In this document: positions 10,440 to 50,281 of the stretch, piece after piece | How the letters are laid out: every line of letters begins with the position of its first letter | How positions within the stretch are numbered: the first letter of the stretch is position 1 | DNA from: Promethearchaeota archaeon | GTDB lineage: Archaea > Asgardarchaeota > Lokiarchaeia > Sigyniarchaeales > SOKP01 | Assembly: GCA_048937405.1 (NCBI GenBank) | Contig: JBHLNF010000003.1 | Coordinates: forward strand, 256,001-320,000 | Reading direction: 5' to 3' | Length of the DNA stretch: 64,000 bases | Program-made: the position numbers and the translations under genes | The notes under the pieces: generated by a model | The model's input: the letters and a program-made list of their open reading frames with translations, nothing else | What the model was told of the DNA's origin: nothing | Database searches by the model: none

Positions 10440-10535
10440 CTTTAAAGGAATAAAAATAATAGTTAAAAGTAATTTTTTATTAGAAATCCATAGTAATAAA
10501 TTCTTTATCTAATTTATTAGAAAAAAAGGAATTTT

Positions 10536-12728
10536 TTAAAGATTTAATTTTTGTTTCCATATTTTCATAGATAATTTTAATTCTTCTCTTTCTGGTCGAC
10601 TTAAGATTTCAGGATTGCTTTTAAGTTCAGTGCTAGTAGAATGAATACTTTTCAATATACTACTATAACCTTCCAATTTAACAAATTCATTTTGAAATCT
10701 TTCTAATGCTAATGAGATTTCTGTACCGGTCATATTATCCATATTGTTAACAATTTCATCAAATTTATTTGATAAAATTACCGCCTTAGGTGCTTCAGTT
10801 GTGTCTTTTTCTTCAGGAGGAGTAACACCTTCTTTAGGGGGAATAGTAATTGCTGGTGTCGATACAAAAGGTTCTTCTTTTAATGGTTCTTCCAAACCAG
10901 GTTTTTTTATAGTTCGAATGATTTCTTTTCGAGCTCCTACCCAAGCATCTTCAAGTATGGGGACAAAAATTTTGATATGCTCCTCAATTATACTCCCAAT
11001 TCCAGCAATTTCTGTCACATCTTCTCCTCGAAATTCTGTTTTTGAAAGCACACAAAGGATAACTTCTTCATAGTCTTTATTAATCCCCCATAAATTTTGT
11101 AAAGCTCGATTTCTATAATCAACGTTATCCATCTTATCCATTTCTTGCATAATTTGATTATGTTCATAACTTGTCGTATCTATATATGTAGCAATTCTGA
11201 AGTTTATTCGGGATGGTCTGGCTTTAATTGCTTCAATATCAATATCAGAAAGATTTGGTGCTACTATTAAAACTCGCATCTTGGCTTTTAATATTTCCTC
11301 AGTTATGTGAGCTTTCGCACTTTCTGGAGAACGAATAAACCAGATATCTTTCATAGTGAAACCCCTCTTACCTTTAGCTTGATCCCAAAATTCTCTAGTG
11401 GTTATTTCGCTGACTTCTAACCTTCTCAAAATATCCGATAGTGTATTATCTAGTGTATCCACAATTCCTTTTGAGAAAATATCTCTAATATTACCAAATG
11501 ATTGAAATATACCTCCAGAAAGGCCATCAATTCTTTCTTCAGCTAACTTTACTGCTTTATTAAAATTATCAGAAATTTCTCCAAAAACTTTCTCTTTATC
11601 TTCCCCTGATTTAGCAGTTATACTTTCGACATTTTTAACCGCATCTGTTAATGAGTCTTTCATTTTTGCTATAATTTCTGTATTAATTCCTTCTGTTGCT
11701 TTTTTTAACTCATCAGCGAAAACTGTTTGACTTACACTCAATTGAACGTTAAGATTATCGGTAATATCTTTTAAACGATTTTCAATAACTTTATCAATTA
11801 CATCACCTACAGCTTGTTGAATTACTCCTAAACGTAATTTCTGTAAATTATCCGTTACTGTTTTTTTAATATCCCCAAATTGATTTTTTAGATCAGCAAC
11901 TTGATTTCTGATTATTTGAGATGTTTTCGTATTAAGATTTTCAAATTGTTTTGTTAAAGAGCTAATTTGATCATCTGGGAGAGTTTTAGAAAGATCTCCT
12001 AACTGAGAAATATCTTCAGTTATATTTCTTATTTGATCGATTGCTGAAATAGTATCATCAAATTCTTTTTGTTGAGCGTGGATTTGAGAGAGCATTTTTT
12101 CCTTTAAATCTGACATTATCTCAGTAGAATCTTTAACTTTTTCCATATCTTGTGCTTCTGTTTCAAGTTGAGCAAAGGATTTTTCTAACTGCTTAGGTAT
12201 AGTGGATTTTATATCTGAGATATATGAATAAAAATTCTTTAATTGTGCTATTAGAGCCGCGTATGGAGGTAAAGCTTGATAGTGAGGAGTTGCACCAATA
12301 ATTTCCTTGAATAACCCTTTTTCAAGAAATTTATCTGCAATTTTTTTACATTCTTCTTTAGGTTTGTTAATGAGAATCGCCATTTCTCCAATAGAAACTG
12401 CCTCTCGTCCAGTGGTTCGAAAATATAGCTCAATTTCTTCATCTGAAAGATCTATTTCACTTAAAACTTGTCTGGTTAACTCTTTTGAATATTCAACTTG
12501 CTCTTCCTTTTCTATAACATCTTTTATTTCAAAATTCTCAACTTCTAAATATTGATTTATAAAGACTGTTAATTTATGAGGTGGCTCACCATGAACATCC
12601 TCTTTTTTAATTGGAAACTTTTTTATATCTCTGTATTGATCAACCGAAATTGGAAATTTGATTTCTTTTAAACAGATTTTACATGTAACTGCAACATCAA
12701 CTACATCTTTATCTTTAAATAAGTACAT
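10536..12728 (-). CDS. Multidomain protein: CxxC/His putative Zn module, TrmB-like wHTH, long coiled coil, TrmB/PLD-like domain, C-terminal helical domain
   Basis: CKIC...HGEPPH; DLSDEEIELYF...FLEKGLF...YQALPP (TrmB-like); ~300 aa helical region; ILKAKMRVLIVAP; Pro-rich linker. Confidence 0.6.
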   Translation of the reverse strand: MYLFKDKDVVDVAVTCKICLKEIKFPISVDQYRDIKKFPIKKEDVHGEPPHKLTVFINQYLEVENFEIKDVIEKEEQVEYSKELTRQVLSEIDLSDEEIELYFRTTGREAVSIGEMAILINKPKEECKKIADKFLEKGLFKEIIGATPHYQALPPYAALIAQLKNFYSYISDIKSTIPKQLEKSFAQLETEAQDMEKVKDSTEIMSDLKEKMLSQIHAQQKEFDDTISAIDQIRNITEDISQLGDLSKTLPDDQISSLTKQFENLNTKTSQIIRNQVADLKNQFGDIKKTVTDNLQKLRLGVIQQAVGDVIDKVIENRLKDITDNLNVQLSVSQTVFADELKKATEGINTEIIAKMKDSLTDAVKNVESITAKSGEDKEKVFGEISDNFNKAVKLAEERIDGLSGGIFQSFGNIRDIFSKGIVDTLDNTLSDILRRLEVSEITTREFWDQAKGKRGFTMKDIWFIRSPESAKAHITEEILKAKMRVLIVAPNLSDIDIEAIKARPSRINFRIATYIDTTSYEHNQIMQEMDKMDNVDYRNRALQNLWGINKDYEEVILCVLSKTEFRGEDVTEIAGIGSIIEEHIKIFVPILEDAWVGARKEIIRTIKKPGLEEPLKEEPFVSTPAITIPPKEGVTPPEEKDTTEAPKAVILSNKFDEIVNNMDNMTGTEISLALERFQNEFVKLEGYSSILKSIHSTSTELKSNPEILSRPEREELKLSMKIWKQKLNL

Positions 12729-12761
12729 TTTTTATAATCATCTCTTGCTAATTTATTTATT

Positions 12762-14015
12762 TTAAAATTCAACTTTTTCAGGATAGGTTATTTCTAGCAA
12801 ACTTAATGCTTTTTTTGCAATTTCATATGTAATATCGCCATCAGTTTCTTGACTTTTATATGCTGCTCTTATTTTAGGAAGTAAATATTCTGGAAATATT
12901 ATTAAAGGTTTTATATCTGTTAATAGACAAATCCATTTTCTATCATTCTTATCTATAACTTCTGTGATAATATTTAAATTTTTTAAATCCTCTAATAATA
13001 TCTCGGTTACAGCAAACTCTGAGAATATTTTTGGAATTTTATCCAATGGATAATGATTGTGCCTCATTAATACAAAAAAATCATAAACATCAGGATTTAA
13101 AAGAATTGAGGCAATTTTTTTTGTTTCTTCTAATGTTTCTGTATATGGATCGTAATTTGAAAAGAAATCTACAACTTTTTGTCTGTAGAGTGGTAAGAGT
13201 TCATTATTAGTTTCACTAAAATGGTTTAATAAATTTTCATTAGGGATACGACTAAGTATTAAGTCTTTTACAAGAAATAAATATTCTCCTTGGTGAGTAA
13301 TTTGTCCTGTTTTCTTATTTTTCTCTCCTTTTATCCAATCTCTACGAATAATATTCAATTCCAAAAACGGTTGAAGTAAAATGTCAATATTCACATTAGT
13401 ACTCATTTTATCTAAAGTTTTTTTTATTTCCTTTTTTGATGTTGGTGATTCCCGTAATATCTCTAAGATTTTTAATCTCTCAGGACTATTATAGATCAAT
13501 GCTGTTTTTTGAAGTTTATCTAAATTGGATAATCGATCTATTTGAAATATGGTGAATTTTAATTCGTTTTTCAATCTTATATTAATATTTTCAATTAAGG
13601 AGAGTTGTTTTGAGTTTCTCGCTCTTGTTAATTTATCAAAAATAGTATCTAATCGATCTCCCATTGTTTTAATCAAATCTTCAAAAATCGCTATTTCATC
13701 ATCTAATTCAAAGATAGAAATTGCGAGATATTGGGTTCCATCAGCAACCTGCTTAAAATAAGACATTACTTGATATGGTGTTTCTTTTAACCTTCCTTCA
13801 TAATAATTGCTATAACTATATTTTACACTGGAAAGTCCTGTAGTGTGCTGATAAAAAATCGCAAATATGTCATTTTCATCAAGCAATTCTGAAAAATTAT
13901 TTTCATCATACTCATCTTCCCGAAATACTAATTGATTCGGTTCGAATTCTGGTTCTATTTCTCCCGTCTCTTTCTGATTTATTTTGAACTGAAATGCTAA
14001 TATTCCTTGGATCAC
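12762..14015 (-). CDS. Putative longin-like domain plus two winged-helix domains
   Basis: Alpha/beta N-terminus; ERLKILEILRESP...FLELNII and YDFFVLMRH...LKNLNII are repeated wHTH-like units; 33 bp upstream of the 730-aa gene. Confidence 0.5.
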   Translation of the reverse strand: MIQGILAFQFKINQKETGEIEPEFEPNQLVFREDEYDENNFSELLDENDIFAIFYQHTTGLSSVKYSYSNYYEGRLKETPYQVMSYFKQVADGTQYLAISIFELDDEIAIFEDLIKTMGDRLDTIFDKLTRARNSKQLSLIENINIRLKNELKFTIFQIDRLSNLDKLQKTALIYNSPERLKILEILRESPTSKKEIKKTLDKMSTNVNIDILLQPFLELNIIRRDWIKGEKNKKTGQITHQGEYLFLVKDLILSRIPNENLLNHFSETNNELLPLYRQKVVDFFSNYDPYTETLEETKKIASILLNPDVYDFFVLMRHNHYPLDKIPKIFSEFAVTEILLEDLKNLNIITEVIDKNDRKWICLLTDIKPLIIFPEYLLPKIRAAYKSQETDGDITYEIAKKALSLLEITYPEKVEF

Positions 14016-34800: not shown

Positions 34801-36372
34801 TTGAAGACTATAACAGATTTCTTAATTATTGGAAGTGGAATCTCTGGACTTTCTTTAGCGTTAAATCTTTCCAAATTAGTTCCAGAAGAACGAATTTTTT
34901 TAATCACAAAAGAAAGTCTCCATGAGTGTAGTACATTTCATGCTCAAGGGGGAATCGCTTGTGTATGGGATGATGATGATAATTTTGAAAAACATATCCA
35001 AGATACATTAATTGCAGGAGATGGGTTATGTAATAAGCAAATTGTCAGAAAAATAATAACTCAGGCTCCTGAAAGGATAAATGAATTAATAGACTTTGGA
35101 TTAGAGTTTACTAGGGATAAAAATGGAGAATACGATCTTGGAAAAGAAGGAGGACATTCGAAAAGAAGAATACTTCATGTGAATGATCAAACTGGAAGAA
35201 GTATTGAAAAAATATTGATAGACAATGTAAAAAAATTAAGTAATATTGAAATAAAGGAAAAATGGTGTGGAATTAATCTTTATGTTAAAGATTTAAAATG
35301 CTATGGGGCATATGTTCTAGAACAGGATTCTGAGGAAATTCATACTATTATAGCTAAATCCACTATTTTAGCTACGGGAGGGGCAGGAAAGATTTATTTA
35401 TACACAACAAATCCTGACGTAGTTTCAGGTGATGGAATCGCAATGGCCTACAGAGCAGGTGTTATGATATCCAATATGGAATTTTATCAATTTCACCCTA
35501 CATGTTTATATCATCCATATGCCAAATCATTTCTGATCACTGAAGCAATGCGAGGAGAAGGCGCAATTTTGAAAGATTTAAGAGGAAATGAGTTCATGGG
35601 AAAATATCATCCTCAAAAAGAGTTAGCACCTCGTGATATTGTATCAAGAGCTATTGATGCCGAATTGAAGAAATCTGGTGATGATCATGTCTATTTGGAT
35701 ATAGCTTCTTATAAAGATTCTAATTTTATCAAAAATCATTTTCCAGGAATTTATGAAAAATGCTTAAAATTTAATATTGATATTACAAAAGAACCTATTC
35801 CTGTAGTTCCTGCTGCTCATTATTGTTGCGGAGGTGTGAGGAGTGGAATTGATGGTCTTACAGAGATTAAAAATTTATTTGTTATTGGAGAAGCCGCTTG
35901 TACGGGTTTTCATGGTGCTAATAGACTAGCAAGTAATTCTTTACTTGAAGGTTTAGTTACTGCCCATGAATGTGCATTTTATTTATCAGAACATGCATCT
36001 AGTTTAAAAATCAAAGATTTTCCAGAATGGGAAATCGGGAATGCTGTTCCATCAACAGAAGCTGTAGTAATAACTCAAAATTGGGATGAAATTAGAATGT
36101 TAATGCAAAATCTTGTTGGCATTGTCAGATCAGATTTGCGTTTAAAGAGTGCTCTTAAACGAATGAATTTATTTTCAGAGGAGATAGATTATTATTATTG
36201 GAATTATAAAATCGATAAGAATTTAATTGAGTTAAGAAATTTATCGATGGTTGCAGAAATATTAATTAGGTGTGCACTATCGAGAAAAGAAAGTAGGGGT
36301 ACTCATTATAATGAAAACCACCCTCAAAAATTAGATTTAGCAAGGAATTCTTACATTAAAAGACCTTGGTAA
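34801..36372 (+). CDS. nadB: L-aspartate oxidase
   Basis: IGSGISG, AQGGIA, EGGHSKRRILH, QFHPT, ELAPRDIV, HGANRLASNSLLE, RKESRGTH. Confidence 0.95.
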   Translation: MKTITDFLIIGSGISGLSLALNLSKLVPEERIFLITKESLHECSTFHAQGGIACVWDDDDNFEKHIQDTLIAGDGLCNKQIVRKIITQAPERINELIDFGLEFTRDKNGEYDLGKEGGHSKRRILHVNDQTGRSIEKILIDNVKKLSNIEIKEKWCGINLYVKDLKCYGAYVLEQDSEEIHTIIAKSTILATGGAGKIYLYTTNPDVVSGDGIAMAYRAGVMISNMEFYQFHPTCLYHPYAKSFLITEAMRGEGAILKDLRGNEFMGKYHPQKELAPRDIVSRAIDAELKKSGDDHVYLDIASYKDSNFIKNHFPGIYEKCLKFNIDITKEPIPVVPAAHYCCGGVRSGIDGLTEIKNLFVIGEAACTGFHGANRLASNSLLEGLVTAHECAFYLSEHASSLKIKDFPEWEIGNAVPSTEAVVITQNWDEIRMLMQNLVGIVRSDLRLKSALKRMNLFSEEIDYYYWNYKIDKNLIELRNLSMVAEILIRCALSRKESRGTHYNENHPQKLDLARNSYIKRPW

Positions 36373-36460
36373 TATAATATCGTTTTTAATATCTATAATT
36401 TTAAATTATTATTCTCATTACTATTGATAAGTCTAATCTTATAGAGGAAAAGGATTAATT

Positions 36461-37264
36461 GTGAATATTGGTAAAAAAATTAGAATTGAAAGAATAATTG
36501 ATCGGAAAAGCAAGAATACCATTATTATTCCAATGGATCATGGACTTACAATGGGAACCATTAAAGGATTAGAAAATATTGCTGACATGGTTGATAAAGT
36601 CGCATTAGGAGGCGCTAATGCCGTACTCGAACATTCAGGTATGGTTGACGCAGGTCATCGACAATCGGGTAAAGATATCGGTCTAATTATTCATTTATCT
36701 GGAGCGACTGAATTAGCACCAGATCCAAATAGAAAGGTTTTAGTTTGTTCGGTGGAAAGAGCCTTGAAAATGGGTGCTGATGCAGTATCTATACATATTA
36801 ATATTGGTGCTGATGATGAACCCGAGATGCTCCAAGACGCTAGTAAAGTTGTAGAAGCTTCAAGAGAGTGGGGGGTCCCATTATTAGCGATGATGTACCC
36901 ACGAGGAAGAAAAATTAAAGATGAGAATGATCCTGAAGTTGTAAATGTTGCTGTAAGAGCTGGGGCAGAATTAGGAGTTGATATTGTTAAAACGAATTAT
37001 CCTGGCGATATTGATGCTTTTAAAGAAATTGTTAAAGGAGTAAGTCATATTCCAGTAATAATCGCAGGAGGTCCAAAAATGGATACAATTCCAGATTTAT
37101 TACAAATGGTTTATGATTCACTAGAAGCAGGAGGAGCAGGAGTTGCATTTGGGCGAAACGTTTTTCAATCTGATGATCCTACAAAAATGGTCAGTGCAAT
37201 TAGCAAGATTGTACATAAAAACTATACAGTAAATGAAGTTCTGAAAGAATACGGATTTACTTAG
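36461..37264 (+). CDS. 2-amino-3,7-dideoxy-D-threo-hept-6-ulosonate (ADH) synthase / archaeal class IA aldolase
   Basis: [28 protein letters not shown] (Schiff-base Lys), AGGPK, GRNVFQ. Confidence 0.85.
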
Positions 37265-37274
37265 ATTACTCACT

Positions 37275-38549
37275 ATGAGGGAAAATTTGAAAATTTATAA
37301 ACCCTTTGAAGAAAAGGTTAAAAACCAGAAAAATCAACAGTTTCGTGTAATAATCTCATTTGATAATTTGTCAGATCGAGAAGATTTTTTAAAAAATAAT
37401 GAAGATCTGAAAATTTTAGGTAAATTTGATTTAATTCCATCTATTTATGTAAATTTAGTAAAAGAAAAAATAATCAACTATAGTAAAAGTAAATTAATCA
37501 AGAAGATCGAAGAAGATCAAAAACTCTATCAATCAATATTAGATGTACTTGAAATCTTAGAAATAAATAACTATAAAAATTCCCAAATCTCATATACTGG
37601 AAAAAATGTAAATGTAGGGATTATTGATGATGGAATTGATGTAAATTTTTCTTCAATAACTAAGAATATATTAAAATATCCTTTTTTCAACAGAAAAGCA
37701 AAAAACTATGATTTAAAGGATGCAAAAGATAAAATCAGCCATGGAACTTTAATGGCTAGTATAATTTGTAACCAATTTAAAAACGCAGATAATAATTACA
37801 TTGGAATTGCTCCAGATGCTAATATTATTGATTTTGATATATTCAATGTTAACCGAGAATACTACTTCTCAAATATTTTAAAGGTTTTCGATAAAATTAT
37901 AAGTGAAAATATAAATGTTGATATATTATTAATTTCTCTAAATTCAAAAGATAGTTCTGATGGTAAAGATATTTTGTCTTTAGCATGTGATCTATTAGTT
38001 GAACATGGAATTGTAGTTGTATGTTCATCTGGTAATTTTGGACCAGATCCATATACGATAGGGAGCCCTGGAGCCGCAGAAAAAATTATTGCAGTTGGAG
38101 CTCTCACAAAAAACCTAATTATTACTAATTTTAGCGGAAGGGGTCCTACTTTAGATAATAGAATAAAACCAGATATATGTTTACATGGATCTAATGTGAT
38201 AGTACCAATATCTCAAAATTTAAGAGTAAAATTATCTGGTACTAGTGTTTCTGCTTCAATTTGTGCTGGATTCATCGCTTTAATGAAAGAATATAATCCA
38301 AAAATGGGATATAATGATATCATTCAATTAATTAAAAAATCAAGCAGAGATTTGAACTATGATTCTAATGCTCAGGGATTAGGGATTTTAAGAATTATTG
38401 ATGTATTTAAAGAATTGGATTTGTATCATGAAAAACTCTTCCCCTATAATTATTTAGTTAAAAGATCTTTAATTTTTTCAATTGAATTTTTTATTATATT
38501 TGTTTTTATCTTCTATTTTGTCTATTTTTTTAATAGTTGGAATATCTAA
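37275..38549 (+). CDS. S8 subtilisin-like peptidase with prodomain and C-terminal TM helix
   Basis: IIDDG, HGT, SSGN, SGTS triad/oxyanion motifs; SGRGPT...KPDI; hydrophobic C-terminus. Confidence 0.85.
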   Translation: MRENLKIYKPFEEKVKNQKNQQFRVIISFDNLSDREDFLKNNEDLKILGKFDLIPSIYVNLVKEKIINYSKSKLIKKIEEDQKLYQSILDVLEILEINNYKNSQISYTGKNVNVGIIDDGIDVNFSSITKNILKYPFFNRKAKNYDLKDAKDKISHGTLMASIICNQFKNADNNYIGIAPDANIIDFDIFNVNREYYFSNILKVFDKIISENINVDILLISLNSKDSSDGKDILSLACDLLVEHGIVVVCSSGNFGPDPYTIGSPGAAEKIIAVGALTKNLIITNFSGRGPTLDNRIKPDICLHGSNVIVPISQNLRVKLSGTSVSASICAGFIALMKEYNPKMGYNDIIQLIKKSSRDLNYDSNAQGLGILRIIDVFKELDLYHEKLFPYNYLVKRSLIFSIEFFIIFVFIFYFVYFFNSWNI

Positions 38550-39103
38550 TTAAAAATCATGAGGTAAATAAAATATATCCTATATTTCATGTAGCTCTAC
38601 CTTTAATATTTACTGAAATCCCACGTTTAAAGAAATTAAAAATAAATAGATATTCTCTAATAATCGGTGCACTTCTTCCAGATATCATAGATAAACCATT
38701 GTTCCTTTTAGGATTTGGAAATGGTAGATTTCTTTCTCATACCTTATTATTTGCAATTATTAGTTTCCTAATTGTTCATTTTTCCTCAAAAAAAAATGTA
38801 AGCATTTCATTTCCATTTTTTATCGGTATTGTATTTCATTTTTTGTTAGACATTCCACATGTGCCTTTTTTTTATCCATTTATAAAATATGATTTTGGAG
38901 TTGTTGATGAACCATTCTTATTTTGGATTAAACAACTATGGACAGAGCCACTAGTAATAATTACCGAAGGGACAGGTGTGTTATTTATTATCTATATTTT
39001 AATAAAGAATAAATTGTATCAAATAGACAAATTATCTGAGTATTTAAGAGGAATAAATCAAACGTTTATACAAAATTCTAAAGAAGTCGAAATTAGTGTT
39101 TAA
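38537..39103 (+). CDS. Membrane-bound metal-dependent hydrolase (YdjM-like)
   Basis: H...GALLPDIIDK, RFLSHTL, HFLLD; real start possibly ATA at 38573. Confidence 0.8.
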   Translation: MEYLIKNHEVNKIYPIFHVALPLIFTEIPRLKKLKINRYSLIIGALLPDIIDKPLFLLGFGNGRFLSHTLLFAIISFLIVHFSSKKNVSISFPFFIGIVFHFLLDIPHVPFFYPFIKYDFGVVDEPFLFWIKQLWTEPLVIITEGTGVLFIIYILIKNKLYQIDKLSEYLRGINQTFIQNSKEVEISV

Positions 39104-39224
39104 TAGTATAGAAAATTATATTTTTTAAAATAGTTTTAATATGGTAATAAACCAAATACTAATTATTTAATAATTGGTTAATTAATTCTAAAATTACCTT
39201 AAAAACCAATTTTAATTATATTTA

Positions 39225-40739
39225 ATGGTATTTTCCTTGAAAAAATACGATGTACTTTTAATTCATCCACCTAGAGTGTTAAATCCAGATTATCGTAAAA
39301 ATGCTAAATTTATTCGAGGTACATTTATTTTTATACCTATGGGTGTTTTTGCTATTGCAGATTTACTTGAGAAAGAAGGTTTTGGAGTTAAGATAATAAA
39401 TTATCCGTTAGAGCAATATCTAAATCGTAATTGGAAATTAATCAACTTTCTCAAAAATATTGATTTTGAAGTGTGTGGATTGGATTTACATTGGCTTCAT
39501 AATGCTTACGGTGCAATGGAAATTGCTAAAATTGTGAAAAAAGCAAACCCAAATGCTAAAGTAGTACTTGGAGGATATAGTGCATCATATTACCATCATC
39601 AAATATTGAAATATTATAAAGATATAGATGGTATAATCAGAGGAGAAGGAGAAGTTCCACTACTTAAATATGTTCAAAGTATTAAAAAAAATCAATCTTT
39701 AGATAATGTCCCTAATTTATCTTATCGAGATTCTTTTAAACCCGTAAAAATTAATTCCCTTACATATATAGCAAAAACATTAGATAATCTAAATTTTACT
39801 AATTTTTCACTTCTGGAAAATGCAAAGCAATATTTTGAATGCAGTAGGCAAATGATGGGAATCTCTTTTAATCTTTCTATTGGAAGAGGTTGCCCTTTTA
39901 ATTGTCCATTTTGTGGAGGAGGTCAAAGGGCACAAAAAAGGTTATCAGGTCGAGAAAATGTCATCCTTAGAAAACCAGAAAAAGTAGTAGAAGATATTAG
40001 TAGTGTTCTCAATAATTTTAATATACCAAGTATTTTTTTTGGACACGGTGCTTATCCAGCTACCTTAAAATATTGGAAAAGATTATTTGGATTAATTCAG
40101 AAAGAAGATTTTGACATTGGGGGAGATTTAGAGATTTGGCGTTTACCATTTCCTAAATATATGTGGGATATATTCTATAAAACATTTCCTCGTAGATATT
40201 CATCACTTAGTATCTCTCCCAGAACAATGTCAAGTAGAGTACATCAAAAAATAAGGAAAATTTGTGATCCTACCTTTAGTTTTCCTAAAAAGCAAATAAA
40301 TGATTTAATAAAGAATGCAAATATATACAAAAGAACTTTAAGAATTTGGCTAACTGTCGGATTTCCTTTCCAATCTCACCTGGATATTCAAAAAGATTTT
40401 ATTTTTGCCTTAAAGTGTCAAATAAAATATGGTAAATCAATTTCAAAGCCCATTACTATTATGAATGAACCATATCATATTTTTCCGGGATCCCCTGCTC
40501 ATGAAGCTCCTGAGAAATTTGGTTTAAAATTAATTTTAAATTCATTTCCACAAATTTCTGCATTTTTTAAAAGAACTAAAATAACATTTTTCTATAATGC
40601 AATAAATTATGAAACTAATAGATTTTCTAAAACATCTATTCGTAATATAAATATGTTATTATTTTTAAGTAATTTACTCACTTCTTTTACTACAGGAGCT
40701 AAACTATCTGATAGAAAAGAACAAGATTCCAATATTTAA
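39225..40739 (+). CDS. Cobalamin-binding radical SAM enzyme
   Basis: LLIHPP, PMGV, VVLGG, RGEGE (B12-binding domain); GRGCPFNCPFC. Confidence 0.9.
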   Translation: MVFSLKKYDVLLIHPPRVLNPDYRKNAKFIRGTFIFIPMGVFAIADLLEKEGFGVKIINYPLEQYLNRNWKLINFLKNIDFEVCGLDLHWLHNAYGAMEIAKIVKKANPNAKVVLGGYSASYYHHQILKYYKDIDGIIRGEGEVPLLKYVQSIKKNQSLDNVPNLSYRDSFKPVKINSLTYIAKTLDNLNFTNFSLLENAKQYFECSRQMMGISFNLSIGRGCPFNCPFCGGGQRAQKRLSGRENVILRKPEKVVEDISSVLNNFNIPSIFFGHGAYPATLKYWKRLFGLIQKEDFDIGGDLEIWRLPFPKYMWDIFYKTFPRRYSSLSISPRTMSSRVHQKIRKICDPTFSFPKKQINDLIKNANIYKRTLRIWLTVGFPFQSHLDIQKDFIFALKCQIKYGKSISKPITIMNEPYHIFPGSPAHEAPEKFGLKLILNSFPQISAFFKRTKITFFYNAINYETNRFSKTSIRNINMLLFLSNLLTSFTTGAKLSDRKEQDSNI

Positions 40740-40879
40740 TCTATAAATATCAGTTTAATTAGTTTTTAAACTATTTCGAAATTTTTAAATGCAAATGATT
40801 TTTATTATTAAAAATATTACATATGAAACCTATCTAGAGAAATTATATATTCTACTTAAAATAATAATTATAATTAAAT

Positions 40880-41581
40880 ATGCCCTTTACACAAAAACTA
40901 AGCATTACGAGAATTATATTAATTTTAATCTTTTTTTTCGCTAGTATCCCTATTACACTAATTTGTGCGCTATTAGGAGATGCTACCATTTTAATTTCTA
41001 TTACAAAAGGTTATTTTACATCAGGAAATTCAATTTTCCTTCCTTATTTGTCTATTACTAATATTTTTTGGTTTTTACCTGATAAATTTCAATTTATACA
41101 GATCAGTTCTGGTTTTTTGATTGATAGTATAATTATCATAAATATATGTCCTATGGTTGAAAGAATTGCTTATCAATATTATATAAAGGTTTGTTCAGAG
41201 GAAGTTTTTCAAGAACCTTTTGATTTTGATCCTAAAAATCAAATCCATAATTTACATCAAGGTTCAGTCATACTTTTTGGATTAGGAGACGAGCCAATAC
41301 TTCCCTCTAATGTATTAATTTTATCTATTAAATTTAAAAAAAATGAAAGTCTAATAAATAAATGCAATAATTATTATTTTTTAAAAGAAAAAGGCAATAA
41401 ATTTGATGAGATTACTAGTATAAGACTATTTCACTTATCGTTTATATTGCACTATTCACATTTTCTACAATTTTTTAATATATATGATATTGAAAAATTA
41501 GATAGTATTTCTATCAATCAATATCTTTATCCTCAAACTATTATTTCATATTCAACTAAACCTTTTCAACGGGAGGGATAA
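40880..41581 (+). CDS. Hypothetical membrane-associated protein
   Basis: 233-aa ORF with hydrophobic N-terminal part; no recognised motif. Confidence 0.5.
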   Translation: MPFTQKLSITRIILILIFFFASIPITLICALLGDATILISITKGYFTSGNSIFLPYLSITNIFWFLPDKFQFIQISSGFLIDSIIIINICPMVERIAYQYYIKVCSEEVFQEPFDFDPKNQIHNLHQGSVILFGLGDEPILPSNVLILSIKFKKNESLINKCNNYYFLKEKGNKFDEITSIRLFHLSFILHYSHFLQFFNIYDIEKLDSISINQYLYPQTIISYSTKPFQREG

Positions 41582-41671
41582 AGATGATAACTTTCTTCTA
41601 TAACTTAATGAAAAATAATAATTTAAAGTTTAAATTTAAACATCCAAAAAATATTTTGAAATTTATATGAG

Positions 41672-43078
41672 GTGAATTTAATGGAATGGAAAAATGAAAT
41701 TGAAGATTTGTACAAACAAATAACGAATTTAACTCCTGAAGCGTTTCGCCCATCTGTTAAACCTATGTTACGTGAGGCTGCTGAAAAAACAGCGCAACTT
41801 AGGAATTCTGGATTTGTAAGTAGGGACGATTTGCTATCTGCATTATTTGAGATAACACCAGAAGCATTTCAACCTACAGTTGTCAAAGATTTGAAGACAA
41901 TAGGAATTGATACGGATAGATATATAAAATTATCAGAAATTAGAAAACAATACGCTCGCTCATGGGATGAAATTAGTGGAGCTTTCTTACCTGGTGTCTA
42001 TCATTTTACTATATATCTAACGGATCGATGCAATCAAAATTGTCTCCATTGTGCTGCCGCGGTAATGGAGAAACGTCCAGAATTTCCCACTGAAACTTGG
42101 ATTGAAATTATTGAGGATCTTGAACAAAGTTTACGAAAACGCGGTCGACGAGGATGTTATATATGGTTTGGAGGAGAACCTACTATTCGTAAAGATCTTA
42201 AAGATTTAATAAAATATTGTGGTGAAAAGGGCTATTATCAAGCACTTGCAACTAACGGAATTTTGTTTACCGAAGCACTGGCTAAATTATGCGCAGATGT
42301 TAAGATGAGCCATATTTTTATTAGTTATGATAGTACGGATCCCAAACGCGCTGCAAAAATTAGAGGGCATCCAAAAGCATACGAAGCAGCGGAAAAAGCG
42401 TTAGATTTAGCTGCAAAATATGGGATTTTTACCATTGCTAATGTAACTGCTCAAAAAGAGAATTTCGATGAATTAGATATGTTAAGGGAATATTTTAAAT
42501 CTAGAGGTGTAACGCCCTTTTATAGACCCCTGATCAAACAACGTTCGGCGGATTTAAATTGGGACGAAATCGGCTTAAGTATTGACGAATATCGACAATT
42601 CTATGATTTTAAATATAAAAATACAATAGAGGCTATCAGAAAAGGAGAAGGATCATCGCTCAATAAATTCTATACATGGGATATGGTGCCATTCATGGAG
42701 TGTCCTATAAATGATGAGGAAAGGACTGCGATCGAATGGGGCACAGGATGTCAAGCCTGTCGCTCAATTTCCGGGATTGATACTAATGGAGATATATTCC
42801 CTTGTGATTATCCCTCTGATTTAATCTTAGGCAATATTCTTGAGCAGAGTTGGGATAACATTATGGAAACTGAAATGTTCAAAAAAATTAGAGATCGAAA
42901 AATAAAAGGGAAGTGTTCAAATTGTCACCACCTTGATATGTGTGGTGGAGGTTGCCGGGTGCATGCAGAGAATGTAACGGGTGATTTTTTAGCTGCACTT
43001 CCTTTCTGTTGGCATGAAAATGATCATGAACATGAAGTTAATTTTGCAGATAAAGAAGAAGTAGAATTGCTAGAATGA
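41672..43078 (+). CDS. Radical SAM/SPASM enzyme with N-terminal PCP_red/DUF2621-like helical domain
   Basis: CNQNCLHC, GGEP, ATNG; SPASM cysteines GCQAC, PC, CSNC..CGGGC, FC. Likely start ATG 41681 after GAGGTGA. Confidence 0.9.
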   Translation: MNLMEWKNEIEDLYKQITNLTPEAFRPSVKPMLREAAEKTAQLRNSGFVSRDDLLSALFEITPEAFQPTVVKDLKTIGIDTDRYIKLSEIRKQYARSWDEISGAFLPGVYHFTIYLTDRCNQNCLHCAAAVMEKRPEFPTETWIEIIEDLEQSLRKRGRRGCYIWFGGEPTIRKDLKDLIKYCGEKGYYQALATNGILFTEALAKLCADVKMSHIFISYDSTDPKRAAKIRGHPKAYEAAEKALDLAAKYGIFTIANVTAQKENFDELDMLREYFKSRGVTPFYRPLIKQRSADLNWDEIGLSIDEYRQFYDFKYKNTIEAIRKGEGSSLNKFYTWDMVPFMECPINDEERTAIEWGTGCQACRSISGIDTNGDIFPCDYPSDLILGNILEQSWDNIMETEMFKKIRDRKIKGKCSNCHHLDMCGGGCRVHAENVTGDFLAALPFCWHENDHEHEVNFADKEEVELLE

Positions 43079-43155
43079 TTATTTAGAATTTAATATTCTT
43101 TAATAAAGTAATTTGAAAGAGATAAAAAACAAAAATAAAGGAGGTGATAATTTAA

Positions 43156-43545
43156 TTGAACACAAAAGAAGAATGGGAAGCATATCTCGAGCATTTCATG
43201 AAAGCCTACAATGAGATTCCAGATCTAGCGAAATTGTTAGACCCAATTGCACCATTAATCTTTCAATATGAAATAACTGATAAACCTGAGATGAGTTATT
43301 GGCAGTTTATTGATCATGATAAGATGGATTGGGGAATAGGTATTTATTCCGGTCCTGAAGCCCCAAAAATCATCCATAAAACAGATTTCAACACAATTAA
43401 GAAGGTAAATTCTGGAGAATCTGATCCAATTCAAGCGACTATGGCGGGTACTTATATTGTGGAAGGTGACGTGAGTAAGTTGATGGCATGTGCATCATTA
43501 TTGCCACTTAATGCAAAAGCTCATGAAAAAGCAAATCAACAATAA
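43156..43545 (+). CDS. SCP2 (sterol carrier protein 2) lipid-binding domain protein
   Basis: DPIQATMAGTYIVEGDVSKLM matches the SCP2 C-terminal signature; strong SD GGAGGTGA at 43140-43147. Confidence 0.8.
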   Translation: MNTKEEWEAYLEHFMKAYNEIPDLAKLLDPIAPLIFQYEITDKPEMSYWQFIDHDKMDWGIGIYSGPEAPKIIHKTDFNTIKKVNSGESDPIQATMAGTYIVEGDVSKLMACASLLPLNAKAHEKANQQ

Positions 43546-43668
43546 AGAAAAGAGTATATATTAAAATCTAATAAGAAATTTTTAATTTCATTTTAAAAAT
43601 CTATAAACCAAGAAAAAATAGTCAATAGGAAAAAAGAGAAAAATAATTAATAAACTAAATATCTTAAG

Positions 43669-45081
43669 GTGAGAATGATTCAATTTTATGTTGCGACAAA
43701 TTGGGATCCTAATCTAATCGATGAATTAGCTAACTATCCTGTAGTTGATTTATATGGAGTTGCAGATCATACAATTGTTGGAGGAGGTCGACCCTCGTTT
43801 TTGTTACGAAATATATCTGATGAAGATATAGCAGAATACATAAAAAAAGTACATGATAATAAATTGAAATTTTCATATCTATTAAATGCCCCATGTATGA
43901 ATAATATGGAGTATGATCCACGCTATCATAAAGAGTTGCTTAATTATCTTCAATGGATTACTGATATTGGAGTTGATGGCGTTATAGTAACTATTCCTTT
44001 TTTAATACAACTTATAAAAGAACAATTTCCTAAGTTAAAAATACGAGTCTCCACTATTTCGCATGTTAATAGTGTGAATAGAGCGAAATTTTATGAAATG
44101 TTAGGAGCTGATGAAATCACTCCAGACGTCATGATTAATCGAGATTTTAGGACTTTAAAAAATATTAAGAAAGCAGTTAAATGTAAAATTGTCCTTCTAT
44201 TAACTGATGGTTGTTTATATCAATGTCCTTTCAGATATTATCATTATAATATCTTAGGCCATTCTTCTCAAACATATCAACAATTCGACAGAAATTACAT
44301 CGATACTTGTATATTAAATTGTAGTGTTATTAAATTTTCAAATCCTGCGGAGATTCTCAAATGTAGGTGGGTTCGTCCAGAAGATTTATCCCATTATGAA
44401 GAAATTGGAATCACAGATTTTAAAATAGCTGGACGTCGGATGTCAACCGATTGGATTATTAGATCTGTGAAAGCTTTTTCTTCAAGAAAATATGAAGGAA
44501 ACCTCATTGACATTATTCAAGGATTTACTATGTCAATTGGAGTAGATAAAGATCCAAATATTAAATTCACAAAAACAGTCACTGAAGAGATTAAATCCAA
44601 ATTAATAATTGATAATACGAAACTTGATGGATTTATAAATTTTTTTAAAAAGCAAGATTGTATCTCAATGTGCAATGAGTGTAATTACTGTGATGAATGG
44701 GCAAAGAAAGCGGTTATATTAAATAGAGAGGAATCTACGAGATATGTTGAGTCTATAAAAGATTATCTTGAGGACATATTAACTAGCCGTGAGTTTGGAA
44801 TCGAAACGGCTAAACCAAAAGAGATAAAGAACGATGGTTTATTATGGGATAGTGAAACTAAGATTATTTTTGATGAATTAATAAAATTATCACCACAGCA
44901 GTTTCATCAAATTGCTAAGATGGTAATTTCTTCTCTAGCAGAAGAAAAAGCCAAAAAAAGGTTTTCAGAAGTTGTAGAAAACAAAGATATTGTTGAAGCA
45001 TTTATAGAAGGAACACCTGAACCATTTCAAGCAGATATGAGAGAAGGTCTCAAAAAGCATGGACTTTTGGAAGGAAAATAA
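43669..45081 (+). CDS. Peptidase U32-family Fe-S protein (putative O2-independent hydroxylase) with C-terminal PCP_red/DUF2621-like domain
   Basis: GVDGVIV, RVST, CLYQC-x27-CILNC, WVRPEDL, FKIAGR, extra CISMCNECNYC. Likely start ATG 43675. Confidence 0.85.
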   Translation: MRMIQFYVATNWDPNLIDELANYPVVDLYGVADHTIVGGGRPSFLLRNISDEDIAEYIKKVHDNKLKFSYLLNAPCMNNMEYDPRYHKELLNYLQWITDIGVDGVIVTIPFLIQLIKEQFPKLKIRVSTISHVNSVNRAKFYEMLGADEITPDVMINRDFRTLKNIKKAVKCKIVLLLTDGCLYQCPFRYYHYNILGHSSQTYQQFDRNYIDTCILNCSVIKFSNPAEILKCRWVRPEDLSHYEEIGITDFKIAGRRMSTDWIIRSVKAFSSRKYEGNLIDIIQGFTMSIGVDKDPNIKFTKTVTEEIKSKLIIDNTKLDGFINFFKKQDCISMCNECNYCDEWAKKAVILNREESTRYVESIKDYLEDILTSREFGIETAKPKEIKNDGLLWDSETKIIFDELIKLSPQQFHQIAKMVISSLAEEKAKKRFSEVVENKDIVEAFIEGTPEPFQADMREGLKKHGLLEGK

Positions 45082-45150
45082 ATTTTTTAGAGAAATATAA
45101 AAATGAAGAAGACTATCTCTCAGGTTGTAATCTGACTTGAAATAAATCTT

Positions 45151-46587
45151 CTATTTTTTTTTATTTGATTTTTTAGATCTTTGTTTCAGGGAGTGTTCTA
45201 TCTTCTGAAAGATTGCTTTAACCATAATTATATTCACTACTCTTGGAATATGAAATCTTAAACCTCGATTTAGAACGACAGTTTTAATTCTAGGCCAAAG
45301 TTTTTTAGAATTTGAAACTTCAAAAAAAGCTCTATTCAAGAAATCTTTCAAATCTTTTATTGATAAATAGGGATATTTAATAATTGGCACTGACCAGTTA
45401 AATTCACGCCAATCATTGCTTAATAAAAGATTGTCCTCTAAAACTTTTTCCATCAATTTTGTTCCCGGAAATGGAGTTAATACTGAAAAGGTTGTTAAAT
45501 CGATTTCTAATTTCTTAGCAATTTCGATTGTAGATTCTAAATCATCTTTTTTATCCTCAAAATTGGATCCAAGAATAATGTTTCCTTGAATAAAATAGCC
45601 ATAATCATGAAGAATTTTTAAAGCTAATTTGATTTGTTTGAATTTAGTTTGTTTGTTAAGAAAATCCAATGTTCGATCAGAAAAACTCTCGATTCCTAAA
45701 AATAGGAAAATAAAACCAGCATCAGCCATCTTTTTAATAATTTTCGGGTGCTTTACAATCATATCAACTCGAATTTGAGTTGAAAAATATTTTCTAATAC
45801 CTTCCTGAATAATGGCATTACACAGTTCTTCTACAAATTTATGATCTACCAAAAAATTATCATCAATGATAAAAATAAATGGACTCTGATTTTTAACCTC
45901 ATTTGAATTTAATTCTTTTATAATACTTGGTATTGAACGAGTCCGGTATCTCTTTCGATAAAATTCGTGAATACAACAAAAATTACATGAATATGGACAA
46001 CCTCGACTAGTTTCAATGCAATCAATAGGAAAACCATAAAAAGTGTATTCCACTTTTGCTTCTTTTGAACGATAGTGTCGAGAAGGTAATTTAATATGTT
46101 TTAAATCTAATAATTCTCGGTCAGGGTTATGAATTATTTTTCCATTTTTTTTATATGATAATCCTGGGATACCAATGGGAGAATTATTTTGGATAAGCTC
46201 CCGAAAAGTTATTTCTCCCTCACATCTTATCAGGATATCAATAGATTGAAATTCAAGAGTTTCTTTAGGAACAAGCGTAGGGTGCCAACCACCTATAACT
46301 GTCTTTGATCCATAAGTTTTAGCAATATTAGCAATTTTAACTACATGATAGATTTGTGGAGTATAATTGCAACTAATCCCTACATAATCAGGTTTAAATT
46401 GATAAATTGTATTTTCAATGCTTTTTAAATCTATAGTTTTTAGCCTATTATCAATTATAAGGACATCAGCAATTTCTTCAATATTTGCAGCAATATATTC
46501 TAAACCCAATGGTGGAAGAATTACATTTTTTTGGGTACCATGCTTAAAAACGTCAGGATAATCTGGATTTATAAGTAGTACTCTCAG
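45151..46587 (-). CDS. Cobalamin-binding radical SAM enzyme; start extended to a CTG codon
   Basis: SRGCPYSCNFC, GGWHPT, IIDDNF, LGIES, LTPFPGT; frame stays open 26 codons upstream of 46509, giving (M)RVLLINP...PPLGLEY. Confidence 0.9.
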   Translation of the reverse strand: MRVLLINPDYPDVFKHGTQKNVILPPLGLEYIAANIEEIADVLIIDNRLKTIDLKSIENTIYQFKPDYVGISCNYTPQIYHVVKIANIAKTYGSKTVIGGWHPTLVPKETLEFQSIDILIRCEGEITFRELIQNNSPIGIPGLSYKKNGKIIHNPDRELLDLKHIKLPSRHYRSKEAKVEYTFYGFPIDCIETSRGCPYSCNFCCIHEFYRKRYRTRSIPSIIKELNSNEVKNQSPFIFIIDDNFLVDHKFVEELCNAIIQEGIRKYFSTQIRVDMIVKHPKIIKKMADAGFIFLFLGIESFSDRTLDFLNKQTKFKQIKLALKILHDYGYFIQGNIILGSNFEDKKDDLESTIEIAKKLEIDLTTFSVLTPFPGTKLMEKVLEDNLLLSNDWREFNWSVPIIKYPYLSIKDLKDFLNRAFFEVSNSKKLWPRIKTVVLNRGLRFHIPRVVNIIMVKAIFQKIEHSLKQRSKKSNKKK

Positions 46588-46788
46588 AGTATATCATCTA
46601 AATTGATATAACTTATTTTCTAATAAATTAGGCTGAAATTTATTTTTCCTATAATATGCAATTTCCTATATATTAGTAATTAAAAAATCTAACTCTATTT
46701 ATTTTTATTTATAATTTTGAAAATTATTAGTTTAATAATTAGAAAATGCAATATTTAATACTGAACGTACAAATTTTTAAATAGTAAG

Positions 46789-47529
46789 ATGACTGAAAAT
46801 AAACCTCTTCATGTAATTATTGATAACAGAGAGTTGAAATTGATGGCTCTATTAGATAATAAAAATGATATAATAACATATGAATCAAAACAATTAGATA
46901 TCGCGGATATTGTTATTTCGAACGAAGTTGCAATAGAGAGAAAAGAGGGATTTGATTTTGTGTCTTCTATAATGGATAATAGACTATTTGAACAATTATT
47001 ACGTTTAAAAGACACATATGAAAATCCTATCCTAATATTAGAAGGTTTAAATAATGAAGTTTTTGAAAATACAGGTATGAAAATATCATCAATCTATGGT
47101 GCTCTTTCTTTTATTTCATATAAAATAGGAATTTCTGTAATTCCAACCAGAAATTTAGAAGATACGGCAATAGCAATTGAAAGAATTGCTTATCGGGAGC
47201 AAGTAAAAGATAGTATGCCAATATTTTCAAGAAGAGCTCCAAAGCAAATGTCAAAAAAGGAGAGAAGATCATTTATTATTGAAGGGTTAGTTGATATTGG
47301 TGCTAAAAAAGCTAAGACTTTAATCGAGAAGTTTAAAACTCCATATAACGTCTTTAAAGCAATAAAAAATACTGAAATCTTATATACAAAAACGGGAAAC
47401 CCTAAGGGCATTAGAGGCCCACTTGAAGTTCTTACTGGATTTGGCTGGAAATTTGTTGAAAAAAACCAAAAACTTCTTTTTGGGAAAGAAAAAAAAAGTC
47501 CTCAAAAACGGATTAATGATAAATATTAA
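46789..47529 (+). CDS. xpf: XPF/ERCC4 structure-specific endonuclease (short form, no helicase)
   Basis: IIDNRE, ADI, IERK, RLFEQ, ILEG, followed by HhH motifs. Confidence 0.85.
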   Translation: MTENKPLHVIIDNRELKLMALLDNKNDIITYESKQLDIADIVISNEVAIERKEGFDFVSSIMDNRLFEQLLRLKDTYENPILILEGLNNEVFENTGMKISSIYGALSFISYKIGISVIPTRNLEDTAIAIERIAYREQVKDSMPIFSRRAPKQMSKKERRSFIIEGLVDIGAKKAKTLIEKFKTPYNVFKAIKNTEILYTKTGNPKGIRGPLEVLTGFGWKFVEKNQKLLFGKEKKSPQKRINDKY

Positions 47530-47612
47530 TGTCAAAGATAGGATTTATTTAATCCCACATGATATTATTTCATTATATTAGAAGGGATTGAAGTAGTATC
47601 TTACTGATACTT

Positions 47613-49411: not shown

Positions 49412-50281
49412 TTAAGAAATTTCTTTAATAGCTTCTTTCAAAATTGCTAAGATTTTTTCCCGATACATGGGTTCGATTGAAATCATTCCATGAGTTTTAA
49501 TTATACGCTTTTCACTCGATAATATTTTTTCGCAAAATTCTGGTGTTAACCTATTTGGTAAATCTTGTTTATTAGCGATACCAATTACAAATTTATCTTG
49601 ATAAAATTTATCTAAAATATCATGTATAATTTCTTTAGAACCATTAATATTTTCAAAGGTAGAATCAGTCACTAAAATACAAATATCAGATCCTTGTAAA
49701 AGGCTTTTCCATAAAGATCTAAATTGAGCTTGACCTGCAAAATCCCATAATGTTATGGATCTTTCAAACTCATCTCCATCATATGAAGCGATATCCGCTG
49801 TGATGGTTGGAACATATTCAAGATTTACATCCTTTCCACAAATCAATTTTGTCAAAGTAGTCTTTCCTACACCACCAAATCCAATAATTGATATTTTAAT
49901 TGCTCCTAAAATTATATTATCTAATTCATGTTCAAAATCACTGAAAATACTTCGATTCCCCGCCCAACTCCCATCCTCTAAAATTTTACCGAAATTCTCA
50001 ATGAATTTTGTTCTAATACTTAAGATTTTTGAATTAACAGTTGCATCATCATCTTCTAAATCGGTACATACTACAATTATAATTGTATCAATTATTGTAT
50101 AATAATACTTAAAATCCTCTGTAGCTGTACTTTTTATATCACTCTGACTAATTTCTTTCATAAAACCAGAAAACGCACTTAAAAATCCAGCTAATAAATC
50201 TCTATCTACCTCCGAATTACCATAATTTCTAAATAACAATGATTTGCCATCTCTCGTCAAAACGTTTATGTATTGAATCAT
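49412..50281 (-). CDS. Longin domain fused to small (Arf-like) GTPase
   Basis: N-term DLLAGFLSAFSGFMKEI; G1 GFGGVGKTT, G2 PTI, G3 WDFAGQ, G4 NKQD. Confidence 0.85.
   Translation of the reverse strand: MIQYINVLTRDGKSLLFRNYGNSEVDRDLLAGFLSAFSGFMKEISQSDIKSTATEDFKYYYTIIDTIIIVVCTDLEDDDATVNSKILSIRTKFIENFGKILEDGSWAGNRSIFSDFEHELDNIILGAIKISIIGFGGVGKTTLTKLICGKDVNLEYVPTITADIASYDGDEFERSITLWDFAGQAQFRSLWKSLLQGSDICILVTDSTFENINGSKEIIHDILDKFYQDKFVIGIANKQDLPNRLTPEFCEKILSSEKRIIKTHGMISIEPMYREKILAILKEAIKEIS

Follow-up and report, generated by a model that had tools for sequence, protein, structure and literature searches.

A radical SAM/SPASM, SCP2 and U32 gene trio in a Loki-type Asgard archaeon is the retained part of a larger accessory operon and a candidate for oxygen-independent lipid tailoring

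Among the closest described counterparts of the locus analyzed here is UbiT/UbiU/UbiV, the O2-independent ubiquinone hydroxylation system of Proteobacteria (PMC6747719), in which prephenate serves as the oxygen donor (PMC10990095). We have analyzed a stretch of 64,000 nucleotides (the window) from a Promethearchaeota archaeon (assembly GCA_048937405.1, contig JBHLNF010000003.1), in which a radical S-adenosylmethionine (SAM) enzyme with a SPASM domain (rSAM/SPASM), a stand-alone SCP2 protein and a protein of the U32 family are encoded one after another. To our knowledge, U32 proteins are the only enzymes known to hydroxylate with an organic oxygen donor, namely prephenate, and only four of them have assigned roles, none of these being archaeal. 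The window has a GC content of ~0.29 and lies on contig C13 of a genome (G000) of 4.47 Mb in 29 contigs that is 100% complete by marker genes. We surmise, with the considerations for and against in rough balance, that an accessory Loki-type Asgard operon for the O2-independent tailoring of a hydrophobic, membrane-derived molecule has survived here in the form of its core, the trio. The three genes are as follows:

41672-43078, + strand: rSPASM1, radical SAM/SPASM enzyme (Pfam), likelier start at ATG 41681
43156-43545, + strand: SCP2, stand-alone predicted lipid-binding protein of 129 residues (Pfam, AlphaFold, Foldseek)
43669-45081, + strand: U32short, divergent U32 protein of 470 residues (Pfam, Foldseek), likely start at ATG 43675

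An initial annotation, made from the sequence alone, had described three co-oriented genes with these domains, separated by gaps of 77 bp (rSPASM1/SCP2) and 123 bp (SCP2/U32short), and we recovered the same gaps, with Pfam assigning the corresponding domains and all three genes on the + strand. The GGTGA motif, which it had read as a ribosome-binding site at each gene, indeed precedes all three; the listed GTG starts of rSPASM1 and U32short fall within the motif itself, and the in-frame ATG codons at 41681 and 43675 are a better match to the N-termini of homologues. A promoter and terminator scan returned 50 sites vs. 54 expected, a scan that is not informative for an archaeon. That the three genes are functionally linked, as had been proposed, is borne out by their synteny across many Loki-type genomes and by U32::SCP2 and rSAM/SPASM::SCP2 fusions; in a neighborhood search, the same genes were found together in >15 loci of other genomes, a co-occurrence that is not due to chance.

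Annotation of these contexts by blastp against a reference gene set revealed a larger recurrent operon with the trio at its core. In locus L011, for example, the genes run in the order of B12a (a B12-binding radical SAM enzyme), a membrane protein of ~230 residues, rSAM/SPASM-1, rSAM/SPASM-2, B12b and the prenyltransferase (PTase) PTase_Orf2, followed by a 383-residue U32-like protein (unk383), a 683-residue U32long::SCP2 fusion and U32short. SCP2 is a free protein in L010, L016, L017, L019, L021, L023 and L005 but is fused to U32long in L011, L007 and L035 and to an rSAM/SPASM enzyme in L007, while an rSAM/SPASM::PTase fusion occurs in two more distant metagenomic loci, L014 (JGI 3300041087) and JGI 3300069122. 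These two distant versions have a U32 identity of 41-47% and two or three U32 paralogues, with L014 also carrying a UbiE-like methyltransferase and a HemN-like radical SAM enzyme. The PTase_Orf2 of the relatives is a true ABBA prenyltransferase, the best solved relatives being AmbP1/AmbP3, NphB and CloQ.

The closest relative of our locus, L016, has 88-91% nucleotide identity to the window and is fully collinear with it save for one deletion. Between the genes for rSAM and SCP2, L016 carries a second rSAM/SPASM enzyme (rSPASM2) and the ABBA prenyltransferase, and both are missing from the window, where blastn aligned positions 36253-43035 with 2-6791 of L016 and positions 43087-47530 with 9421-13860. 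The junction is:

43036..43086, no strand: deletion junction at which 2,629 bp of L016 (rSPASM2 and the ABBA PTase) are missing

It lies in the 3' end of the rSAM gene, with the last ~14 codons differing from those of L016. The missing genes have not moved elsewhere, since tblastn of the complete genome with PTase_Orf2, rSPASM2, B12b, unk383 and U32long found none of them, and no prenyltransferase came up when the genome was searched with Pfam. L034, a second close relative (92% U32 identity), retains the prenyltransferase, and the U32 proteins of L016 and L034 are 91-92% identical to that of the window. The loss of PTase and rSPASM2 is recent and lineage-specific, because both L016 and L034 still carry the PTase. 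What had been taken for a self-contained three-gene system is instead a cut-down copy of a larger operon that lost PTase and rSPASM2 in a 2.6-kb deletion.

The cluster is accessory and patchily distributed among Loki-type Asgard archaea. Homologues of the U32 protein number in the hundreds at 60-92% identity, nearly all of those with a source name being labelled as Asgard (Promethearchaeota or Lokiarchaeota-type) metagenome-assembled genomes. A methanogen as the source, which the low GC content might suggest, is rejected by these names and by synteny. Within a GTDB-based sample of 301 genomes of the phylum, with presence called at E <= 1e-60, U32short was found in 24, all of them in the class of the window: 21 of 68 genomes in family f1, the others in f3 and f4. 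Of 21 other genomes sampled from the window's own genus, 1 carried U32short. For PTase, the count within the family was 28 positive genomes among 134, G000 not being one of them, and 18 of the 21 U32short-positive members of the family also have PTase. As these counts come from samples, absence here means not found among the genomes searched. An Asgard-wide spread, which NCBI labels (Thor-, Heimdall-, Odin-, Hel-, Hod- and Hermodarchaeota) would have implied, was rejected; we claim no phylum-wide spread because the positives fall in one class and the 'Odin'-labelled L010 is syntenic with the window. Submitter labels are at odds with synteny for L010 (GCA_048885385.1, Odinarchaeota) and L022 (Hodarchaeota), as both share the Loki-type order of the window (SuccDH/S8/B12a ... 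ADH synthase/ERCC4/PGM/Roc), and L005 and L007 are labelled Heimdallarchaeota and Thorarchaeota, respectively, whereas all positives of the GTDB-based sample are in one class.

Recognizing that the deletion removed two enzymes, we weighed whether it broke the pathway, leaving a decaying remnant in which rSAM, SCP2 and U32 are intact only for want of time to decay. Such a reading would fit with 1) the absence of the deletion from the closest relatives L016 and L034; 2) the presence of PTase in most U32short-positive genomes of the family (18/21); 3) the accessory nature of the cluster, which is often lost (1/21 in the genus). On the other hand, the remaining genes are full length, and their ratios of nonsynonymous to synonymous substitution (dN/dS) vs. 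L016, which span the whole divergence of the two loci, are 0.14 for rSAM, 0.13 for SCP2, 0.12 for U32, 0.15 for B12a and 0.14 for the flanking B12c, a range (0.12-0.15) that we liken to that of housekeeping neighbors; the neighboring ADH synthase and ERCC4 genes have ratios of 0.09 and 0.04. In addition, the identical minimal layout, B12a-membrane protein-rSPASM1-SCP2-U32short, is found in another genus (genome G258, locus L028) at 73-76% identity, and PTase-free variants are also found in G144 (L027), with the order membrane protein-SCP2-U32short-B12b, and in L022, with a different rSAM/SPASM, a different SCP2 and a FAD_binding_4 and CCG pair. In light of these features, decay of a broken pathway strikes us as unlikely. 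Because L028 shares the minimal layout and the trio has dN/dS values of 0.12-0.14, the reduced module looks functional as judged from sequence comparisons, and the PTase-free layouts of G258/L028, G144/L027 and L022 mark the PTase-free module as a recurring, stable form. All forms share an invariant core of U32short and SCP2, to which one rSAM/SPASM and one B12-binding radical SAM enzyme are usually added. What is new here is a recent and clean deletion of PTase and rSPASM2, together with evidence of purifying selection on a PTase-free rSAM-SCP2-U32 core and of its recurrence in other genera. We view this lineage, which lost PTase and the second radical SAM enzyme but kept the core under purifying selection, as a natural experiment that defines a minimal unit of three to six genes.

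The assignment of the small protein to the SCP2 fold was upheld: it scored 24.0 bits against Pfam SCP2 (PF02036; cut-off 21.3), its AlphaFold model has a pLDDT of 93.4, and the best Foldseek match is the SCP2 domain of UbiJ (6h6p; TM 0.64/0.70), with sterol carrier proteins of bacteria, archaea and eukaryotes next in rank. This model had 35 PDB matches at E <= 0.001, the ones listed being proteins of the SCP2 type or domains resembling SCP2. UbiJ corresponds to UbiT under aerobic conditions. With the C-terminal domain (129 residues) of the 683-residue U32long of L011, the window protein shares 77% identity. No NCBIfam family was matched by SCP2, the membrane protein, the 383-residue protein or U32long. 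In agreement with the proposal that the system is undescribed, full-text literature searches returned no paper describing the operon, with one preprint noting only that MK-D1 encodes one SCP-2 homologue.

U32short is a divergent member of its family. The match to Pfam Peptidase_U32 (PF01136; 52.5 bits, cut-off 22.4) covers only profile positions 2-64 of 233; nevertheless, the model (pLDDT 91.8) has a TIM-barrel U32 core, with U32 Mk0906 (5d88; E 3e-12, TMt 0.75) as top Foldseek match and generic TIM barrels making up the remainder. Mk0906 is the only solved U32 relative reached by PDB sequence and fold searches. The cysteine pattern CX3CX27CX3C plus CX3CX2CX2C given in the initial annotation is exact in the translation (C182-X3-C186-X27-C214-X3-C218, then C331-X3-C335-X2-C338-X2-C341) and is conserved in an alignment of 36 sequences, where C186, C218, C331, C335, C338 and C341 are invariant and C76, C182 and C214 near-invariant. 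With six invariant and three near-invariant residues, the nine conserved cysteines would allow up to two Fe-S clusters. The spacing does differ from that of UbiU, as had been remarked, the published motifs being CX6CX16CX38C in UbiU and CXnCX12CX3C in UbiV (PMC6747719).

A quick maximum-likelihood tree unites U32short, U32long, unk383 and their metagenomic relatives (SH-aLRT 97) and separates this clade from E. coli UbiU, UbiV, TrhP and RlhA and from the three canonical full-length U32 proteins encoded on other contigs of this genome; since the UbiU and UbiV branches are long, we rely on this separation and not on the branching order. The canonical U32 proteins of the genome group with the four E. 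coli proteins, opposite the window protein, with the order among them unresolved. The tree thereby sets U32short apart from the RNA hydroxylases TrhP and RlhA, and RNA is an unlikely target because SCP2 fusions exist and separate canonical U32 genes are present. A wider and more divergent U32 family is found in metagenomes (537 representatives at E <= 1e-30), one named member being a Thermodesulfobacteriota protein without the cluster. Separately, genome G109 holds three copies of U32short, two of them in tandem, with 70-75% identity to the window protein (C104:63212-64618; C119:5104-8292).

The third member of the trio, rSPASM1, matches Pfam Radical_SAM with 78.4 bits and SPASM with 39.3 bits, the latter as a full domain, and its translation has CNQNCLHC, which conforms to CX3CX2C. 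It is 88% identical to rSPASM1 of L011 and 95% to that of L016. Besides the catalytic core, the N-terminal ~85 residues (about 41681-41935) comprise a helical adaptor domain that we also found at the C-terminus of U32short (about 44836-45072). This adaptor of ~80 residues is common to the N-termini of the rSAM/SPASM enzymes, the C-terminus of U32short and the N-terminus of the relatives' PTase, with W, P, P and F invariant in the alignment. The sole family to which it shows similarity is DUF2621 (PF11084; cut-off 27.7 bits), with 29.4 bits for the U32 C-terminus alone and scores under the cut-off for the PTase N-terminus of L011 (21.7) and for the rSAM N-terminus (16.6), which matches nothing else; a profile search for a solved relative of the adaptor yielded none (best E 0.095).

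The nearest NCBIfam families of rSPASM1 are AhbD, AhbC and NirJ (118-130 bits vs. cut-offs of 500-650, so that none is assigned as an equivalog), followed by MftC, PqqE and several peptide maturases, all far under their cut-offs. With the heme b synthase AhbD, AhbC and NirJ at the top of this list and a URO-D family gene near the U32 gene in L012, one may think of tailoring of a tetrapyrrole or another cofactor. However, the scores fall far short of the cut-offs, PCP_red (PF08369) was undetected in the adaptor by Pfam scan even at E <= 10, and SCP2 and a context of lipid enzymes are ill-suited to a soluble tetrapyrrole, making this the least probable of the alternatives that we weighed.

The peptide maturases in the same list raise another scenario, that of a ribosomally synthesized and post-translationally modified peptide (RiPP) or of protein maturation, in which the SPASM and B12-binding radical SAM enzymes would modify a peptide, the shared helical domain would recognize its leader and the U32 'peptidase' would trim it. 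Among solved structures, PqqE is the one closest to the rSAM core (52 bits), MftC, PqqE and peptide maturases are among the NCBIfam matches, the B12 enzymes weakly match RiPP C-methyltransferase families, and the occurrence of one small domain in several enzymes recalls the RiPP recognition element (RRE). Despite these likenesses, the family scores are all far under the equivalog cut-offs, the adaptor resembles DUF2621 and not a PqqD-type RRE, SCP2 is a lipid-binding fold that is fused to enzymes in relatives, and lipid enzymes are gene neighbors there. As for a precursor, the initial annotation had seen none, and our search of the intergenic gaps of the block (<=141 bp) for a conserved small open reading frame (ORF) was likewise negative, though a precursor encoded elsewhere is conceivable. 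The sole intergenic small ORF, of 28 residues (41584-41670), is retained only in the closest relative L016, with no matching ORF upstream of rSAM in L011 and L028. Taken together, these data render peptide maturation improbable, and we favor a lipid substrate for the trio.

The conserved block extends beyond the three genes, contrary to the extent first proposed, as two B12-binding radical SAM genes and a small membrane protein also belong to it. These genes, along with a neighboring gene of aromatic biosynthesis, are:

39225..40739, + strand: B12a, B12-binding radical SAM enzyme of 504 residues (Pfam B12-binding and Radical_SAM)
40880..41581, + strand: unk233, small membrane protein of 233 residues, the only predicted membrane component
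45151..46509, - strand: B12c, B12-binding radical SAM enzyme, convergent to U32short (Pfam)
36461..37264, + strand: ADH synthase (AroA'), first enzyme of the archaeal shikimate route (NF005556, 385 bits, cut-off 241; TIGR01949, 340 bits, cut-off 299)

B12a is conserved as the gene with which the block begins in Loki-type relatives. It is syntenic in L016, L010, L017, L019, L021, L022, L023 and L028, and its best NCBIfam match is TIGR04190 (Ta0216 family; 252 bits, under the cut-off of 500). B12c matches BchE, HpnR and HpnJ best, with 135-155 bits, all under the cut-offs, and its convergent pairing with U32 is also seen in L016, L012/L031 and L034. The membrane protein unk233 has a hydrophobic N-terminus (hydropathy >1.7 in the window over residues 3-25), a conserved N-terminal part of ~110 residues and a variable tail; searches of Pfam and NCBIfam gave no family match. 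It evolves fast (dN/dS 0.58), but its position is kept in 11 other loci, with S51, F53, P55, G78, I81, D82 and Y98 invariant. Directly 5' of B12a, after a subtilase gene (37275-38549), is a gene for a YdjM-family membrane hydrolase (38537-39103, + strand) that also weakly matches Zn-dependent phospholipase C, and this may be lipid context or a mere neighbor. Downstream, at 49412-50281 (- strand), lies the gene for a small GTPase of the Roc/Arf/Ras type, extended at its N-terminus; this gene is syntenic in L010.

The ADH synthase gene adjoins the cluster in the window and in five other loci; one of these is L016, and in the remaining four (L010, L017, L020 and L022) it immediately follows U32short. 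Its tie to the cluster is a putative one, drawn from this recurrent synteny only. The partner enzyme DHQS-II (AroB') is encoded on another contig (G000:C7:824295-825371), and the aro genes are scattered, with chorismate mutase on C18 and chorismate synthase on C28. Given that both of the latter are encoded, prephenate should be available in this organism. Immediately next to the JGI 3300069122 locus is a full archaeal shikimate/chorismate operon, the last gene of which encodes chorismate mutase; this adjacency would be in keeping with a demand for either an aromatic precursor or prephenate, the latter as oxygen donor (PMC10990095).

In the relatives, the neighbors point in the direction of membrane lipids. 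A CDP-alcohol phosphatidyltransferase gene is located beside or near the operon in L011, L027, L028 and L035 (in L028 identified by position and length only, from a layout syntenic with L027), and a GT2 glycosyltransferase gene is near the cluster in L011 and L027; both are membrane-lipid head-group enzymes. In L027 (1361-5852) and L028 (17292-20001), there are also two or three tandem B12-binding radical SAM paralogues, 28-32% identical to B12c, beside the GT2 and CDP-alcohol phosphatidyltransferase genes, which may represent a larger lipid-modification island in that genus.

Modification of a quinone, which the initial annotation had offered side by side with that of a lipid, found no backing. 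The case for an archaeal analogue of anaerobic ubiquinone synthesis, serving respiratory quinone biosynthesis, starts from the pairing of U32 with SCP2, a hallmark of UbiU/V/T (PMC6747719). It can also draw on the aromatic PTase that relatives add, on the UbiE-like methyltransferase and HemN-like radical SAM enzyme of L014, on the full shikimate/chorismate operon at the JGI 3300069122 locus and on the synteny of ADH synthase with the cluster. Against this stand the failure to find in the genome a cluster-type PTase, an NrfD-type quinol-interacting subunit or cytochrome bd, as well as the position of the U32 protein outside the UbiU/UbiV clade and a patchiness, even within the genus, that is unlike that of a core respiratory cofactor. 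Moreover, short prenyl groups are what ABBA prenyltransferases characteristically transfer. The context in relatives being that of head-group enzymes, we regard a role in quinone synthesis as very improbable.

Returning to the tailoring of a membrane-derived molecule, we consider an isoprenoid lipid the most likely candidate substrate, or a prenylated aromatic in the case of relatives. We speculate that the lipid is kept in the cytosol by SCP2, possibly with help from the membrane protein unk233, where rSAM/SPASM and U32, both of which carry the helical adaptor, would act on it sequentially. The rSAM enzyme would carry out a 5'-deoxyadenosyl-radical step, e.g. oxidation, decarboxylation or C-C/C-X bond formation, and U32, with up to two Fe-S clusters, may add a hydroxyl group in an O2-independent and probably prephenate-dependent manner, as in its family; methyl groups might be added by the flanking B12-binding radical SAM enzymes. 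Following the loss of PTase and rSPASM2, the module may use an unprenylated or different lipid, as it would in at least one other genus that shares the minimal layout, or make a simpler product.

Several points weigh against this proposal: 1) with PTase gone, the source of an aromatic substrate in this genome is not apparent; 2) the cluster is accessory, with U32short in just 24 of the 301 sampled genomes; 3) the low dN/dS ratios, spanning the whole divergence, are also compatible with a remnant that is now idle, because the deletion is recent and the nearest loci, L016 and L034, still carry PTase; 4) the cysteine pattern of the window U32, CX3CX27CX3C plus CX3CX2CX2C, is not that of UbiU and UbiV, and the protein falls outside their clade in the quick tree; 5) characterized U32 chemistry targets aromatic or heteroaromatic carbons and not saturated isoprenoid chains. 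A bolder version, in which a new U32 Fe-S subfamily, an SCP2 carrier, rSAM/SPASM and a portable adaptor carry out prephenate-type O2-independent oxygenation of archaeal membrane lipids, with the PTase-free trio as the minimal unit, is one that we entertain tentatively and would not expect to hold in full. If true, this would extend lipid-directed U32 chemistry beyond ubiquinone synthesis for the first time, and to archaeal relatives of eukaryotes. More generally, the linkage of a distinct U32 clade to a lipid carrier, to which it is fused in relatives, suggests that the anaerobic oxygenation of lipids may be wider than ubiquinone synthesis, and Asgard archaeal membrane biology bears on the origin of eukaryotes.

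How the locus stands in relation to known systems may be viewed at four levels. Compared with the fuller operon of L016, L011, L010, L005 and L007, the window has orthologous rSPASM1, SCP2, U32short, B12a, membrane protein and B12c (67-95% identity) in the same order, but is without rSPASM2, PTase_Orf2, B12b, the 383-residue U32-like protein and U32long::SCP2. Similar to AhbD/NirJ/MftC/PqqE-type enzymes, the window rSAM has a CX3CX2C core and a complete SPASM domain; it differs from them in having the extra N-terminal adaptor, in equivalog scores far under the cut-offs and in being without a peptide or tetrapyrrole partner gene. With TrhP and RlhA, U32short shares the U32 TIM-barrel fold and, for TrhP, a weak NCBIfam match (28 bits; cut-off 534), but it lies outside their part of the tree and is linked to an SCP2 carrier. 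In contrast to UbiT/UbiU/UbiV, the window cluster has one U32 protein in place of the UbiU-UbiV pair (relatives have a second and a third U32-like gene), no evidence was found for ubiquinone or quinone-using enzymes, and the partners are radical SAM/SPASM and B12-binding radical SAM enzymes, with an adaptor domain shared among enzymes. What the two systems have in common is a U32-family protein with conserved cysteines encoded next to a small SCP2 protein, the model of which is best matched by the SCP2 domain of UbiJ, in an anaerobe able to make prephenate.

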